Assembly (NCBI RefSeq): GCF_028641065.1 | Contig: NW_026576641.1 | Location: forward strand, 248,001-285,603 | Length of the DNA stretch: 37,603 nucleotides | Direction of reading: 5' to 3' | Source: Leucoraja erinacea | Lineage: Eukaryota | Translations under genes and position numbers: made by a program | Shown here: positions 3,693-30,178 of the stretch, piece after piece | Layout: each line of letters begins with the position of its first letter | Position numbering within the stretch: the stretch's first letter is position 1 | The notes under the pieces: model-generated | What the model was told of the DNA's origin: nothing | Database searches by the model: none | Seen by the model: only the letters and a program-made list of their open reading frames with translations

Positions 3693-4347
3693 GAAGATAA
3701 ACACAAAAAGCTGGAGTAACTCAGCGGGTCAGGCAGCATCTCTGGAGAGAAGGAATCGGTGACGTTTCGGGTCGAGACCCTTCTTCACACTTCAGAAGCG
3801 TCTCGACCCGAAACGTGACATAGAAACATAGAAACTAGGTGCAGGAGTAGGCCATTCGGCCCTTCGAGCCTGCACCGCCATTCAACGTGATCATGGCTGG
3901 TCATCCAACTCAGTATCCTGTACCTGCCTTCACTCCATACCCCCTGATCCCTTTAGCCACAAGGGCCACATCTAACTCCCTCTTAAATATAGTCAATGAT
4001 CTGTGGCCTCAACTACCTTCTGTGGCAGAGAGTTGCAGAGAATCACCACTCTCTGTGTGAAAAATGTTTTTCTCATCTCGGTCCTAAAGGATTTCCCCCT
4101 TATCCTTAAGCTGTGACCCCTTGTTCTGGACTTCCCCAACATCGGGAACAATCTCCCTGCATCTAGCCTGTCCAACCCCTTAAGAATTTTGTAAGTTTCT
4201 ATAAGATCCCCCCTCAATCTTCTAAATTCTAGCGAGTACAAGCCGAGTCTATCCAGTCTTTCTTCATATGAAAGTCCTGACCTATTCTTTTCTCCAGAGA
4301 TGCTGCCTGACCCGCTGAGATACTCCAGCGTTTTGGGTCTATCTTCT
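3693..4347. mobile_element. Inverted Penelope pLTR pair (3693-3818 and 4281-4347) split by a minus-strand CR1 3' fragment (3819-4280)
   Basis: ...GACCCGAAACGTGAC | CR1 tail ATAGAAAC...CR1 RT C-terminus | CCTATTC...GATGCTGCCTGACCCGCTGAG resumes the pLTR consensus. Confidence 0.85.
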
Positions 4348-4774: not shown

Positions 4775-5098
4775 AAGGACACAGAGTGCTGGAGAAACTC
4801 CAGTGGGTCAGGCAGCATCTGTGGAGAACATGGATAGTCGACGTTTCTTGTCTAAACCCTTCTTCAGACTGATTCGGGTGGGTGTGTGAGAGGGGGTGGG
4901 AGGGATGGGATGGTGGAGAAGAGAACTGGAAGAGGGGAGAATGTGTAGGAAAGAACTGCAGATACTGGTTTAAATCGAAGGTAGACACAAAATGCTGGAG
5001 TAACTCAGCGGGACAGGCAGTATCTCTAGAGAGAAGGAATGGGCGACGTTTCGGGTCAAAAGAAGGGTCTCGACCCAAAACGTCACCTATTCTTTCTA
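4775..5098 (-). mobile_element. Two adjacent Penelope pLTR remnants, the second with an inverted arm
   Basis: TGCTGGAG(T/A)AACTC..GGCAGCATCT..GACGTTTC..CCCTTCTTCAGACT consensus; degenerate hammerhead cores. Confidence 0.8.
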
Positions 5099-6295: not shown

Positions 6296-6925
6296 AGTCA
6301 AGTCAAGTCAAGTCACTGTTATTTCTATAGCACATTTAAAAAACAACTCTCGTTGGCCAAAGTGCTTTACATTGGTGGAGATACTAACGTTATACAACAT
6401 TGGTTCATAGATTAAGTACATACATAAATACATACATATAGCCTTCACTCAGAGGACGTCAAGAAAGGCTTGGTAGTAGAGATGAGTTTTAAGTCTCGAC
6501 TTAAAGGAGTCGATGGAGGGGGCAGTTCTGATGGGAAGGGGGATGCTGTTCCACAGTCTAGGAGCTGCAACCGCAAAGACGCGGTCGATCGCCCCTGAGC
6601 TTATGCCTAGACCGCGGGATGTTCAGCAACCCTAAGTCGGCCGATCTGAGGGGCCTGGAGGTGGAGTGGTGGGTGAGAAGACTTTTTATGTAGGTGGGGG
6701 CAAGCCCATTGAGGGCTTTGTAGACATGGAGGAGGATCTTGAAGTTTGTACTGAACCGCACAGGGAGCCATTGGAGAGAGTTTCGCCAGGATCGGGGTGA
6801 TGTGGTCCCTGTATCGGGTGCCCGTCAGGAGTGTCGCTGCGGTGTTTTGGACCAGTTGCAGGCGGGACAGGGAAGATTGGCTGATGCCAGTGTAGAGGGA
6901 GTTGCAGTAATCTAGGCGGGAGGAA
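6296..6925 (-). mobile_element. L2-clade LINE 3' fragment with (TTGAC)n tail
   Basis: SRLDYCNSL..., LHWLPV..FKILLHVYKALNGLAPTYIKSLL; AGTCA repeats at 6296-6316. Confidence 0.9.
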
Positions 6926-7031
6926 ACAGGGTGGAAACAGGCCCTTCGACCTTGATTCGAACTTGCAGCTTCTGGTTCAAAGGACGGTTTGCAGCCGACG
7001 AACGTGGCACTCAGTGGGCAACTACTCTACG

Positions 7032-7733
7032 CTGGGTGTCCTTGTACACCGGTCACTGAAAGTTGGCGTGCAGGTACAGCAGGCAGTGAAGAAAGCTAAT
7101 GGAATGTTGGCCTTCATAACAAGAGGATTTCAGTATAGGAGTAAAGAGGTTCTTCTGCAGTTGTATAGGGCCCTGGTGAGACCACATCTGGAGTATTGTG
7201 TACAGTTTTGGTCTCCTAATTTGATGAAGGACATCTTTGTGATCGAGGGAATGCAGTGTAGGTTCACAAGATTGATCCCTGGGATGGCGGGACTGTCATA
7301 TGAGGAAAGATTGAAAAGGCTAGGCTTGTATTCACTGGAGTTTAGAAGGGTGAGGGGGAGTCTTATAGAAACATATAAAATTATAAAAGGACTGGATAAG
7401 CTAGATGCAGGGAAAATGTTCCCAATGTTGGGCGAGTCCAGAACCAGAGGCCACAGGGGAGGTCACTTAAGACTGAGGTGAGCAAAAAAATATTCTCCCA
7501 GAGAGTTGTGAATTTGTGGAATTCCCTGCCACAGAGGGCAGTGGAGGTCAAGTCACTGGATGGATTTAAGAGAGAGTTAGATAGAGCTCTAGGGGCTGGT
7601 GGAATCAAGGGATATGGGGAGAAGGCAGGCACGGGTTATTGATTGGGGATGATCAGCCATGATCACAATGAATGACAGTGCTGGCTCGAAGGGCCAAATG
7701 GCCTCCTCTTGCACCTGTTTTCTATGTTTATGT
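7032..7733 (+). mobile_element. 5'-truncated CR1 LINE
   Basis: [34 protein letters not shown]; 3' UTR. Confidence 0.93.
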
Positions 7734-10199: not shown

Positions 10200-10535
10200 A
10201 CTATACCTGAGATGCTGCCTGACCCGCTGAGTTACTCCAGCATCTTGGATTTGTAGGCTTCTGTAAATTATCCTCGGTGTGTCGGATAGAACTCGTGCAG
10301 GAGTGATTGTTGGCTGGCACCGACCCAGTGGGTCGTAGGCCCTGTTTCCATGCCATATCTCTAAATTAAACTATTGAGATTTTAACTGAGAATTAACTTA
10401 TCAAATATTTGAACCATTTTTATAAAATCAAAAATATTTACTCGAATATTAAAATAATATATACAGTACAGTGAAAATAAAACAGAAACCACCACCTTAA
10501 TACACAACAAACGATAAACTGTTATACAACTATTT

Positions 10536-10683
10536 TAAGAAGGAACTGCTGATGCTGGAAAAATTGAAGGTAGATAAACTCAGCGGGTGGGGCAGCATCT
10601 ATGGAGCGATGGAATAGGTGATGTACGATTCCTTCACTCCATAGATGCTGCCTCACCCGCTGAGTTTCGCCAGCATTTTTATC
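10536..10683. mobile_element. Degenerate inverted Penelope pLTR pair
   Basis: AACTCAGCGGGTGGGGCAGCATCTATGGAG / CTCCATAGATGCTGCCTCACCCGCTGAGTT inverted arms; ribozyme core deleted. Confidence 0.78.
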
Positions 10684-17320: not shown

Positions 17321-17750
17321 GTTCAAGAAGGAACTGCAGATGCTGGAAAATCGAAGGTAGACAAAAATGCTGGAGAAACTCTGCGGGTGAGGCAGCAACT
17401 ATGGAGTGAAGGAAATAGGCAACGTTTCAGGCCGAAACCCTTCTTCAGACCAAAGATCCCATAACGGAATCCTATATGATCCTTGCTTCAGATTGATGCA
17501 GGGAGGTGGGGGAGGGGAAGAAAGGAACAGCAAGGACTGCCTGAAATTGGAGAAGTCAATGTTCATACCGCTGGGGTGTAAACTGCCCAAGCAGAATATG
17601 AGGTGTTGCTCCTCCAATTTGCGGTGGGCCTCACTCTGGCCATGGAGGAGACCCAGGACAGAAAGGTCGGATTCGGAATGGGAGGGGGAGTTGAAGTGCT
17701 GAGCCACAGGGAGATCAGATTGGTTATTGCGGACTGAGCGGAGGTGTTTG
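17321..17750 (-). mobile_element. 5'-truncated Penelope-like element with 11-bp TSD, inserted in an older CR1 3' fragment
   Basis: Minus-strand HLRSVRNNQSDLPVAQHFN...HPSGMNIDFSNFR plus pLTR. GGTGCTAAGGG is duplicated at 17310-17320 and 17751-17761. Confidence 0.9.
17418..17450 (-). ncRNA. Minimal hammerhead motif (UUCG-loop variant)
   Basis: Minus strand GT-CTGAAGA-A-GGGT(TTCG)GCCT-GAAA-C-GTT-GCC; the basal stem II pair has changed to G-U. Confidence 0.6.
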
Positions 17751-18149
17751 GGTGCTAAGGGTGCAGGTGGGGCCAGATACAATAGTGGTATTTGATGTAC
17801 ATATATATGGATATGCAGGGAAATGAGGGATATGGAGGTGGATCATGTATACACAGCTGGGTTAGCTCAGCACAGCCATTGTGGTCTGAAGAGCCCATTC
17901 CTGCATTGTACTGTTCAATTTTCTATGTTCTATGTTTAAGATGTTAGGTTTAAAATATTGTATTTAAAATGTTATTTACCTCACTGTTTCACAAATGGAT
18001 GATTTGAGATGTATTTATTGATGCTGATATTTTTGTTGTGATATATTTATTGCATTTTGAAAATTGTGTAAGTTAATTTTATTCATAATAAAAGTTTCTG
18101 AACCAGAGGAGACAATGCAAAGCCTTTATATTTGGGGGGATAGTTCAGG

Positions 18150-18725
18150 CCACATGGCCCGGCAGAGGTTCACCTGCACCTCCTCTAACCTCATCTATTG
18201 CATCCGCTGCTCCAAGTGTCAGCTGCTCTACATCGGTGAGACCAAGCGCAGGCTTGGCGATCGCTTCGCCCAACACCTCCGCTCAGTTCGCAATAACCAA
18301 CCTGATCTCCCAGTGGCTCAGCACTTCAACTCCCCCTCCCATTCCCAATCCCACCTTTCTGTCCTGGGCCTCCTCCATGGCCAGAGTGAGGATCGCCTTA
18401 AATTGGAGGAGCAGCACCTCATATTTCGCTTGGGCAGTTTACACCCCAGCGGTATGGACATTGACTTCTCCAATTTTAGGTAGTCCCTGCTTTCTCCTTC
18501 CTTCACCTCCCCTTCCCAGCTCTCCCACTGCCTACTGTCTCTGCCTCTTCCTTTCTTCTTCCCATCCCCCCCCCCCCCCCCACCCACCTCACATCAGTCT
18601 GAGGAAGGGTCTCGACCCGAAACGTTGCATATTTCCCTCGCTCCATAGATGCTGCCTCACCCGCCGAGTTTCTCCAGCATTTTTGTCCACCTACAATTTT
18701 TCCAGCATCAGCAGTTCTTTCTTAA
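18150..18725 (+). mobile_element. 5'-truncated Penelope-like element: GIY-YIG endonuclease C-terminus plus pseudo-LTR
   Basis: ORF segment RFTCTSSNLIYCIRCSKCQLLYIGETKRRLGDRFAQHLRSV...VAQHFN...EEQHLIFRLGSLHPSGMDID, stop 18483, then a pyrimidine tract and pLTR. Confidence 0.92.
18597..18628 (+). ncRNA. Minimal type I hammerhead ribozyme motif in Penelope pLTR
   Basis: GT-CTGAGGA-A-GGGT(CTCG)ACCC-GAAA-C-GTT-GC: intact CUGANGA and GAAA core, 4-bp stem II, NUH triplet, palindromic AACGTT stem III. Confidence 0.72.
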
Positions 18726-18749
18726 ACATTTTGGCTCCGTAACAAAAAG

Positions 18750-20547: not shown

Positions 20548-22050
20548 CATAGAAACATAGAAAATAGGTGCAGGAGGAGGTCATTCGGCCCTTCGAGCCA
20601 GCACCGTCATTCATTGTGATCATGGCTGATCGTACCCAATCAATAACCCATGCCTGCCCTCTCCCCATATCCTTTGATTCCACTAGTCCCTAGAGCTCTA
20701 ACTAACTCTCTCTTAAATCCATCCAGTGACTTGGCCTCCACTGCCCTCTGTGGCAGGGAATTCCACAAATTCACAACTCTCTGGGTGAAAAAGTGTTTTC
20801 TCACCTCAGTCTTAAATGGCCTCCCCTGTGGCCTCTGGTTCTGGACTCGCCCAACATTGGGAACATTTTCCCTGCATCTAGCTTGTCCAGGCCTTTTATA
20901 ATTTTATATGTTTCTATAAGACCCATCCCCCTCATCCTTCTAAACTCTAGTGTATACAAGCCTAGCCTTTTCAATCTTTCCTCATATGGCAGTCCCGCCA
21001 TCCCAGGGATCAATCTTGTGAACCTACGCTGCACTGCCTCAATCATAAGGATGTCCTTCCTCTAATTAGGAGACCAAAACTGTACACAATACTCCAGATG
21101 TGGTCTCACCAGAGCCCTATACAACTGCAGAAGAACCCTTTTACTCCTATACTGAAATCCTCGTGAATAAGGCCAACAGCCCCATTAGCTTTCTTCACTG
21201 CCTGCTGTACCTGACACACCAACTTTCCCAGTGACCGGTGGACAAGGTCTCGCTGCACCTCCCCCTTACCAAACCTAATGTTGATAATTAGTGAACGTGA
21301 ACTGAAGCAGAGAATGGATGTAAATGGCAACATGTAATAGAAACATAGAAACATAGAAATTAGGTGCAGGAGTAGGCCATTCGGCCCTTCGAGCCTGCAC
21401 CGCCATTCAATATGATCATGGCTGATCATCCAACTCAGTATCCCGTACCTGCCTTCTCTCCATACCCCCTGATCCCCTTAGCCACTAGGGCCACATCAAT
21501 GAACTGGCCTCAACTACCCTCTGTGGCAGAGAGTTCCAGAGATTCACCACTCTCTGCGTGAAAAAAGTTCTTCACATCTCGGTTTTAAAGGATTTCCCCT
21601 TTATCCTTAAGCTGTGACCCCTTGTCCTGGACTTCCCCAACATCGGGAACAATCTTCCTGCATCTATCCTGTCCAACCCCTTAAGAATTTTGTAAGTTTC
21701 TATAAGATCCCCTCTCAATCTCCTAAATTCTAGAGAGTATAAACCAAGTCTATCCAGTCTTTCTTCATAAGACAGTCCTGACATCCCAGGAATCAGTCTG
21801 GTGAACCGTCTCTGCACTCCCTCTATGGAAATAATGTCCTTGCTCAGATTTGGAGACCAAAACTGTACGCAATACTCCAGGTGTGGTCTCACCAAGACCC
21901 TGTACAACTGCAGTAGAACCTCCCTGCTCCTATACTCAAATCCTTTTGCAATGAAAGCTAACATACCATTCGCTTTCTTCACTGCCTGCTGTACCTGCAC
22001 ACCAACTTTCAGTGACCGGTGTACAAGGTCTCGCTGCACCTCCCCCTTAC
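20548..22050 (-). mobile_element. Two tandem CR1 copies of different subfamilies (20548-21270 and 21339-22050)
   Basis: Each starts on + with an ATAGAAAC tail and carries RT C-terminal ORF remnants. Confidence 0.92.
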
Positions 22051-22399
22051 CGAACCTAATGTTGATAATTAGTGAATGTGAACTGAAGCAGAGAATGGAT
22101 GTAAATGGCAACATGTAAAGGGGTTGAACAGTGCTTTCCAGCAACGTTATTCCCTTCATCCTCTATCCGTACACAGTGGGCAGTGTGTATAGTCATATAT
22201 AGTATTTTTGCTGACTGGACATATACTCGGTCTACGTAACAATAAGCTAAAGTAAACAAAACCACGATCAGTACAGGGACTAATCACGACTTCTCAGAGG
22301 AGATGAACTACAGAGTCACACAGCGCGGAAACAGGCCCTTTGGCCCAACTCACCCATTCCGACCAACATGCCCCATCTATCAATTTGATTTGCCCCAAT

Positions 22400-23777: not shown

Positions 23778-24022
23778 ACAAAGAACTGAAAATGCTGCTG
23801 GTTTAAACCGAACATAGACACAAAGTTAGACGCAAAAAGCTGGAGTGACTCAGCGGGGCAGGCAGAGAGAAGGAATGGGTGGCGTTTCGGGTTGAGACCC
23901 TTTTTCGGACCCGAAACGTCACCAATTCCTCTCCAGGCATGCTGCCTGTCCTGCTCAGAGTTACTCCAGCACTTTGTGCCTGTCTGTGATGCAAACCGGC
24001 ATCTGCAGTTCCTTCCCACACA
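23778..24022. mobile_element. Degenerate inverted Penelope pLTR pair (other single remnants at 19637-19730, 24145-24242, 33595-33688, 35505-35545)
   Basis: CGTTTCGGGTTGAGACCC-TTTTTC-GGACCCGAAACGTCACC centre with flanking inverted arms. Confidence 0.75.
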
Positions 24023-24290
24023 TAAACCCAATGAACCACTGGTTGAATCCTTACCTCTGGTGCTGTCATCGTGGTGTTTGCACGTTCTCCCTGTCATCAT
24101 GTTGGCCCCCCCCCCCCCCCCCCCCCCCCCTTATTAGAAATAAAGGGACTGCAAATGCTGGTTAACGTAAAAAGATACAAAGTGCTGGAGTAACAGCAGG
24201 CCAGGCAGCAACTCTGGTGAACATGGTTAAGTGACGTTTTGGGCAAGTGGCAGGTGGATACAGGAGAGAGGGGGGGGTTCATTAACAGGT

Positions 24291-24502
24291 ACACAAAATG
24301 TTGGAGAAACTCAGCGGGTGCAGCAGCATCTATGGAGCAAAGGAAATAGGCAACGTTTCGGGCCGGGACCCTTCTTCAGACTTTCGGCCCGAAAAGTTGC
24401 CTATATCCTTCGCTCCATAGATGCTGCTGCACCCGGTTAGTTTCTCCAGCACTTTTGTCTATCTTCGATTTTCCAGCATCTGCAGTTCCTTCTTAAAAAA
24501 AA
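24291..24502. mobile_element. ORF-less inverted Penelope pLTR pair with 12-bp TSD
   Basis: Arms ~24291-24365 and ~24385-24460 are reverse complements. TCATTAACAGGT occurs at 24279-24290 and 24503-24514; short A tract at the 3' end. Confidence 0.85.
24349..24381 (-). ncRNA. Minimal hammerhead motif, intact core
   Basis: Minus strand GT-CTGAAGA-A-GGGT(CCCG)GCCC-GAAA-C-GTT-GCC. Confidence 0.7.
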
Positions 24503-24534
24503 TCATTAACAGGTGTATGGGCAAAAGTAGATAG

Positions 24535-29295: not shown

Positions 29296-29382
29296 CTGGT
29301 GAGGGGACGGGGGGGGAGAGGGGGGCGAGAGGTGGAGAGGGTCAGCCTCACAGGAACAAAAAAAGTCCATAGACATAGACAA

Positions 29383-29557
29383 TAGTGCTGGAGAAACTCA
29401 GCAGGTGCAGCAGCATCTAGGGAGCGAAGGAAATAGGCGACGTTTCGGCCCAAAACGTTGCCTATTTCCTTCACTCCATAGATGCTGCCGCACCCGCTGA
29501 GTTTCTCCAGCACTTTTGTCTACCTTCGATTTTCCAGCATCTGCAGTTCTTTCTTCA
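29383..29557. mobile_element. ORF-less inverted Penelope pLTR pair with 10-bp TSD in RGS last intron
   Basis: Palindrome centred on GACGTTTCGGCCCAAAACGTTG; ACATAGACAA at 29373-29382 and 29558-29567. Confidence 0.8.
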
Positions 29558-30178
29558 ACATAGACAAAAGACAATAGGTTCGAGCCAGCACCGCCATTCA
29601 ATGTGATCATGCCTGATCATCCCCAATCGGTACCCCATTCCTGCCTTCTCCCCATATCCCCTGACTGCGCTAACTTTAAGAGCCCTATGTAGCTCTCTCT
29701 TGAAAGCGTCCAGAGAAAGTAACCTACACTGCACTCCCTCAATAGCAACAATGTCATTTCTCAAATTAGGGGACCAAAACTGCACGCAATACTCCAGGTA
29801 TGGTCTCTCAAGGGCCCTGTACAACTGCAGAAGGACCTCTTTGCTCCTATACTCAACTCCTCGTTATAAAAGCCAACATGCCATTCACTTTCTTCACTGC
29901 CTGCTGTACCTGCATGCTTACTTTCATTGACTGATGAACAAGGACCCTCAGATCCCGTTGTACCTCCCCAACTTGACATCATTTAGATAATAATCTGCCT
30001 TCCTGTTTTTGCCACCAAAGTGGATAACCTCACATTTATCCGCATTAAACTGCATCTGCCATGCATCTGCCCACTCCCCCAACCTGTCCAAGTCACGCTG
30101 CATTCTCATAGCATCCTCCTCACAGTTCACACTGCCGCCCAGCTTTGTGTCATCTGCAAATTTGCTAATGTTACTTTA
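29558..30178 (-). mobile_element. Internally deleted CR1 in RGS intron
   Basis: KFADDTKL..WADAWQMQFNADKCEVIHFG; central deletion near 29718. Confidence 0.9.

Follow-up and report, generated by a model that had tools for sequence, protein, structure and literature searches.

A stub-sized insertion of a Penelope-like element in Leucoraja erinacea, with head-to-head pLTRs that were likely laid down by double priming

The 212-bp insert at positions 24291-24502 of a 37,603-nucleotide stretch of Leucoraja erinacea DNA (contig NW_026576641.1, positions 248,001 to 285,603; the whole stretch is called the window below) is a stub of a Penelope-like element (PLE) that carries an endonuclease, and was likely built on site by double priming. 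Its architecture is that of the published inverted-pLTR-plus-tail insertions of EN+ PLEs, without the body. In itself, the insert is nothing unusual: it repeats a known insertion pattern in miniature and is not a new RNA replicon. Its anatomy, the duplications, the parent element, the end positions, the variety of the junctions and the concordance of the arms can all be read directly from the DNA. The family provides thousands of young, short, readable products together with near-intact parents, and is useful for testing models of how PLEs integrate; the origin of the inverted ends of PLEs is stated as open in the available text of PMC8557442 and PMC11167929.

Positions in the element are numbered from C3 of the hammerhead CUGA as +1, with the predicted cut between +28 and +29. 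The insert consists of an inverted, tail-less pLTR set head to head with a direct pLTR that carries a tail. The inverted arm (24287-24382, minus strand; sense positions -3 to +94) has the inner 3' terminus of the family at its outer end and the main 5' endpoint of the family at its inner end. The direct arm (24382-24496, plus strand; +12 to +126) is missing the CUGA half of the hammerhead and includes a tail of about 34 nt at 24463-24496 that is absent from the inverted arm. The tail is closed by an A8 tract (24495-24502, plus strand), whereas other copies of the family close with three or four A followed by C. At the junction (24380-24384), -2/-3 is joined to +12, with one shared base at 24382. 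The same 12-mer is found on the left at 24279-24290 and on the right at 24503-24514 (plus strand), with no third occurrence in the window on either strand. The last four bases of the left copy match +91 to +94, the element's own left end, and the target duplication is therefore 8-12 bp with 4 bp of microhomology. An earlier note on this DNA, made from the sequence alone, had described an inverted and a direct pLTR, an A tract and a perfect 12-bp duplication; all of these are borne out, with the duplication now read as 8-12 bp. No joint that skips the insert occurs among the 15 of 457 joints listed from four DNA contig sets, in which no piece spans the stretch; this speaks neither for nor against an empty orthologous site.

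The inverted arm includes a minimal type I hammerhead core (+1 to +29; 24351-24379, minus strand), a motif class described in PMC4209133. All core letters are present on the minus strand from 24379 to 24351, including the conserved core, stem II and the palindromic helix III; the GUU triplet lies at 24354-24352 and the predicted cut falls between 24352 and 24351. The extra base before stem II, the palindromic ACGU for helix III and the short helix I are likewise found in the metazoan PLE pLTR hammerheads covered by the available text of that paper, which also notes hammerhead pairs on opposite strands, 100-700 bp apart. The motif had been called intact, which holds for the letters of the core but not for the structure: by inspection, helix I has only two contiguous pairs, as it does in the parent, against the 4-5 bp of type I, and the motif is buried. 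The insert folds at -124.9 kcal/mol (z = -17.9, with none of 200 shuffles equally stable) into a hairpin of about 85 bp that is predicted to enclose the motif in a transcript of either strand. Minus-strand transcription would produce the complementary arm ahead of the motif, which is thus predicted to be trapped in the hairpin; unlike that of the published hammerheads, its activity is putative. Predicted folds of the parent context, the local strand and the whole insert do not yield a hammerhead, and in an Rfam search hammerhead families were absent at E ≤ 1, the sole matches being chance ones of the hairpin type.

The insert is one of many. A DNA search of the 2.19-Gb genome returned 4,793 candidates, and an exact two-motif pattern matched 3,264 times on one strand and 3,259 times on the other but never in the reversed control, which corresponds to at least 3,260 palindromes genome-wide with cores of 30-60 nt. 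A census with stricter anchors gave only seven palindromes; its anchors were too strict and it was set aside. The young copies in 892 kb of unselected DNA comprise 28 solo pLTRs (a few of them mis-binned older arms), 11 mini-palindromes and 11 copies with upstream element sequence; L083b, a duplicate of a selected locus, was dropped, leaving 10 independent palindromes. By extrapolation from 10 per 0.89 Mb, there would be about 25,000 young hairpin-forming copies in the genome, which could be a source of dsRNA in host transcripts.

The parent takes the form of a tandem unit of 3,948 nt, with the pLTR placed after the GIY-YIG domain and before an ORF that starts at about +165. The long ORF matches RVT_1 (PF00078, E = 7.4e-06) and GIY-YIG, both below the Pfam curated cut-offs; GIY-YIG in a fragment in the window (PF01541, E = 4.1e-05) is above its cut-off. 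That fragment, the 3' end of a parent-type element at 18061-18726 (plus strand), comprises the GIY-YIG end, a pyrimidine-rich 3' region and a tailed pLTR. YIDD, CCHH and a CX4CxxC linker are present in the parent (the linker in L241), and a CX2-5CxxC linker between RT and EN marks the Neptune and Nematis clades, according to the available text of PMC8557442. Judged by these motifs, the parent is an EN+ PLE with an RT, a C-terminal GIY-YIG and a linker of the Neptune/Nematis type. Two nearly unit-length copies, L249 and L239, stop at +133 and +135, just beyond the tail of the upstream pLTR, where a second protein was perhaps bound. A 4.7-kb tandem repeat (L163:2383-7106), open in three frames on its minus strand, adjoins a truncated ORF of the parent type.

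The duplication and the outer ends are consistent features of the family. They were scored in 49 loci, the first 50 palindromes on contig 1 minus the tandem duplicate L084, all with cores of 30-60 nt. In 48 of the 49, the two arms lie together inside one target duplication of at least 7 bp (8% with shuffled flanks), and in 43 the duplication reaches at least 9 bp (0.5% with shuffled flanks); lengths of 14-16 bp are the most frequent. Exactly one end is tailed at every locus: the outer end of the tailed arm falls at +123 to +126 in 49/49 and that of the other arm at +84 to +100 in 47/49. Single-arm copies have their 3' ends at the same two places.

Eight multi-kb head-to-head copies likewise have one tailed and one tail-less end within duplications of 13-18 bp, with junctions all along the ORF. 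This set leaves out L237, for which a matching duplication was not found, and L255, L209, L211 and L228. Because the long copies obey the same end rule and their joints are scattered along the ORF, the mini-palindromes are the short end of a continuous series with multi-kb inverted insertions. In six of the eight long copies, the tail-less arm extends beyond the tailed one on the 5' side. L251 pairs an arm that ends at -3 with one that runs for 2.4 kb; in L222, one arm carries upstream sequence and an internal deletion. A rule that the tail-less arm is always longer, true of those six, fails overall in the minis, where loci with one complete arm divide 18:4 in its favor, an asymmetry that is not robust. 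The central base of the symmetric joint in minis comes from the tailed arm in 8/9.

The two arms of an insert are usually closely matched. Arms diverge by 2.9% within an insert and 5.5% between inserts; arms of the same insert share 48 of 89 non-CpG variants (shuffled mean, 10.5), and a three-site haplotype is common to both arms in 40 of the 45 loci that could be scored out of 49 (28% by chance). Pairs of arms genome-wide fall into 2635 AA, 828 BB and 74 mixed subfamily pairs (about 2%), where random pairing expects 1307 mixed, a number that would drop if subfamilies A and B differ in age. A few of the mixed inserts, such as L166, L172 and L176, are discordant at several linked sites. In the 24291-24502 insert, too, the arms disagree at three sites (+82, +89 and +92) and correspond to two known haplotypes. 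The insert is a possible chimera of two sources: compared with one source for both arms, that reading saves only about one change. Part of the arm concordance could come from later conversion.

The junctions vary greatly: there are 37 types among the 49 loci. Most frequent are a symmetric joint across the natural near-palindrome at -5 to +4 (9/49) and a joint of -2 to +18 (4/49); a joint at +18 is found in 2 of the 10 independent palindromes of unselected DNA. The exact center of the present insert occurs at three loci genome-wide, with arms of different haplotypes. The 30 best matches of the genome search were kept out of these counts, having been selected for likeness to this insert. The comparison of junctions across loci that the earlier note proposed thus indicates that they are made at each insertion. 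Of the origins offered there, a Penelope-type insertion with an inverted pLTR, extremely truncated anew each time, fits this variation. A role for ribozyme structure in setting the inversion point survives in weak form, in that short self-complementary stretches within the motif and next to it supply microhomology for the recurrent joints.

The main 5' endpoint of the family lies 1-5 nt upstream of the hammerhead core, and solo pLTRs start there too. Among exact copies of -1 to +50 (the first 97 of 9,835, minus 7), 44/90 start at -1 to -5 and 46/90 extend further upstream; by extrapolation (44/90 × 9,835), the -1 to -5 class has about 4,800 copies. Solos in the 892 kb of unselected DNA start at -7 to +3 in 19 of 28 cases. 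Of the 98 arm ends at the 49 loci, a set biased to long cores (30-60 nt), 42 fall at -9 to +1 and none at +29, and 96 of the 98 arms span the cut site. The 10 independent palindromes of unselected DNA include six with shorter cores and three with an arm that reaches -2 or beyond. The available text of PMC3846280 and PMC8557442 yielded no mention of such a prevailing 5' endpoint directly before the hammerhead core.

These features suggest the following course of events. [quoted passage not shown] Their 3' ends would then be joined via microhomology with variable trimming, and the staggered target cut would be filled in to give a duplication of 13-16 bp. Both arms can indeed be read as cDNA from their outer ends, which are start sites of the family that abut a single duplication. 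As a pLTR also precedes the ORF, run-off cDNAs of 95-130 nt could arise from priming within the 5' pLTR of the transcript of the element itself, and a separate non-autonomous RNA would not be needed. Its place at the front of the pLTR, rather than any cleavage at the axis, would be what puts the hammerhead there. In L1 twin priming, both target strands prime, and the product is an inversion that is enclosed by a single duplication and has microhomology where the pieces meet; the two L1 pieces copy different parts of the RNA, whereas here the same part would be copied from two fixed start sites.

Double priming, the start of the RNA and the joining step are what we infer. Of the 10 unselected palindromes, six have shorter cores and only three have an arm that reaches -2 or beyond, so that much trimming must be assumed. 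The endpoint at -1 to -5 is either an RNA start or a hard RT stop, which look alike in these data. The word at -5 to +2 resembles the initiator consensus. The base before G(-2), which is G in 8, T in 8 and C in 1 case, gives no clear extra-G cap signal. A splice acceptor (a pyrimidine tract and AG just before -1) is a further possibility; among the 15 of 125 joints listed there is no skipping joint, and the donor-like word that closes the ORF in one subfamily is missing from the other.

In vitro work on a lizard PLE, the Poseidon element of the green anole, supports several of these steps. According to the available text of PMC11167929, its protein nicks and extends both strands, with RT starting at two internal sites that flank the tail as they do here, and the hammerhead is not needed for insertion; inverted products were not reconstituted. 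The Poseidon ORF starts inside the hammerhead, whereas here it starts at about +165. Double priming of PLE insertions in cells would be an extension by analogy, from a Poseidon-type protein to a parent with a Neptune/Nematis linker. We lean slightly toward a general version in which PLEs integrate by double priming on one RNA, the tens of thousands of stubs in this genome are run-off products of its first 95-130 nt whose joints map the transcription start, and the rare mixed-subfamily stubs stem from two RNAs. If true, double priming from two fixed sites would explain the long-standing inverted-pLTR-plus-tail signature. No description of double priming as the source of PLE inversions was found in the literature as far as it is openly available; subscription papers, supplements and repeat databases may describe such copies.

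The main rival to double priming is fold-back, above all in its antisense-template version. One nucleic acid, whether cDNA or antisense transcript, would fold at short palindromes near the pLTR start and be extended into the mirror arm, as proposed, in the available text of PMC3846280, for an antisense transcript of the Adineta Penelope. Fold-back accounts for arms that usually derive from one source haplotype and for recurrent joints on self-complementary words, such as those at -5 to +4 and, in the unselected palindromes, at +18. It is nevertheless unlikely. Both outer ends lie at the two 3' termini of the family; a tail-less cDNA cannot provide the tail of a shorter partner, and the greater reach of the tail-less arm in 6/8 long copies means that neither cDNA can have templated the other there; and the 74 mixed-subfamily inserts, some discordant at linked sites, are not what a single folded strand would give. 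This counter-evidence does not reach the antisense-template version. The arms might instead record two separate insertions, the second into the first pLTR in opposite orientation. The lizard PLE does nick its own ORF-pLTR junction in vitro (PMC11167929, available text), the arms of the present insert differ at three linked positions, and about 2% of inserts mix subfamilies, yet a second event is hard to reconcile with one duplication around both arms in 48/49 loci, exactly one tailed end in 49/49 and an arm concordance far above chance, and this history is highly improbable.

Only marginally more credible than two insertions, and very unlikely, is that self-cleavage by the hammerhead makes the 5' end of the RNA and thereby sets the inversion point. 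Genome-wide starts at +29/+30 are about twofold more numerous than at the control position +37 (247 versus 131), and a perfect palindrome at +29/+30 recurs at three of the first 29 loci (L381/382, L402 and L406), as two cDNAs of a cut RNA would give. The +29 pattern also picks up +30 starts, internal deletions (5/30) and some loci twice, however; its first 30 matches comprise 13 palindromic rows, the five internal deletions, four solos with a duplication and eight others. No arm end of the 98 lies at +29, the inverted arm of the present insert spans the site, the -1 to -5 class is far larger, and ribozyme mutants left insertion in vitro unchanged (PMC11167929, available text). Cleavage, which the earlier note had considered as setting the inversion point, fails as the main cause; it is at most a minor source of ends, and even a minor share is possible rather than likely. 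The least probable reading, and one that is largely refuted, is the note's other suggestion of a propagating, non-autonomous retrozyme-like palindromic RNA copied as a unit by the Penelope RT. Its high copy number, the recurrence of some junctions (9/49 and 4/49) and RNA-seq reads that cross palindromic joints would suit such a unit. A self-propagating element should have a junction fixed by descent, whereas the 37 types and a shared center with three different arm haplotypes were found; arms are closer to their own partner than to the same arm elsewhere (2.9% versus 5.5%), no ribozyme flanks the unit, its sole core is buried in the hairpin, and the reads are about equal on both strands and mostly enter unrelated sequence.

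The anatomy of the insert agrees with that of related insertions. In the available text of PMC3846280 and PMC8557442, EN+ PLE insertions (Pen2a_Av and others) likewise have head-to-head pLTRs with the inverted arm about 32 nt shorter, a one-sided tail of 30-40 bp, one duplication around the whole and a palindrome at the joint, and likewise a parent with RT, C-terminal GIY-YIG, CCHH and CX4CxxC linker. The present copies differ in having no ORF between the arms and in numbering thousands. Non-LTR retrozymes (PMC7229834; bioRxiv 10.64898/2026.07.22.740005; available text) are also ORF-less and PLE-derived with a type I hammerhead, but they repeat head to tail, every unit carries a hammerhead, and monomer or circular RNA is released, whereas the insert is head to head with one complete core. 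Head-to-tail mini-arrays of the pLTR and ORF start, rather than the palindromes, look like retrozyme-type or rolling products. Such arrays occur at L259-L271 (G000:C1:24092544-24094824), L257, L281, L284 and G000:C9:41121157-41124205; their units of 177-209 nt end near +210 and restart at +1 or +33, with 13 matches on C1. L257 combines a 209-nt unit with an inverted tailed arm in a single 15-bp duplication, and the C9 array switches strand.

RNA reads came from four libraries, fragmented poly(A) and single-cell, whose organism may not be that of the window. Reads of the pLTR occur in both orientations, about equally in two paired libraries, in which 93-94% continue into unrelated sequence; a small number span palindromic joints, and coverage of the ORF start is sparse. 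There is no place where many molecules begin or end, a feature that fragmented libraries could not show. The reads fit read-through in host transcripts and show no trace of a discrete RNA, which libraries of this type would miss. At L253:2186-2234, in the hammerhead region, read joints that go back 32-34 nt recur in several libraries and may reflect a genomic duplication or a small circle.

Five other sites in the window, where the same architecture had been said to recur, are indeed head-to-head pLTR pairs of the same family, but their five junctions all differ (about +1 to +27). The sister mini-palindrome at 29375-29558 has its axis in stem II at about +18 and the only exact 10-bp flanking word of the five, at 29383 in a low-complexity repeat; the remaining four have 5-6 bp. 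The sister at 10533-10683 has its axis near +27 and lacks the hammerhead core. The three others belong to an older subfamily: 23778-24022 is degenerate, 4945-5098 has one arm cut by a GT microsatellite and 3693-4347 is split by another repeat. An older-subfamily pLTR at 24141-24243 (minus strand) ends about 35 bp to the left of the insert's duplication.

Elsewhere in the window, a young solo pLTR of the family (17322-17450, minus strand, starting at about -2) sits in an older parent-type 3' end that extends to 17750. The parent-type 3' end at 18061-18726 lies 400 bp from this 17322-17750 copy in opposite orientation; 17322-18726 was considered as a single long palindrome and rejected, as it reads as separate insertions. 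LINE 3' fragments, which we take to be CR1-like, are numerous throughout the window (e.g., 6885-7481, 21572-22162 and 34930-35523), and long GTGA and purine-rich simple repeats are also present.
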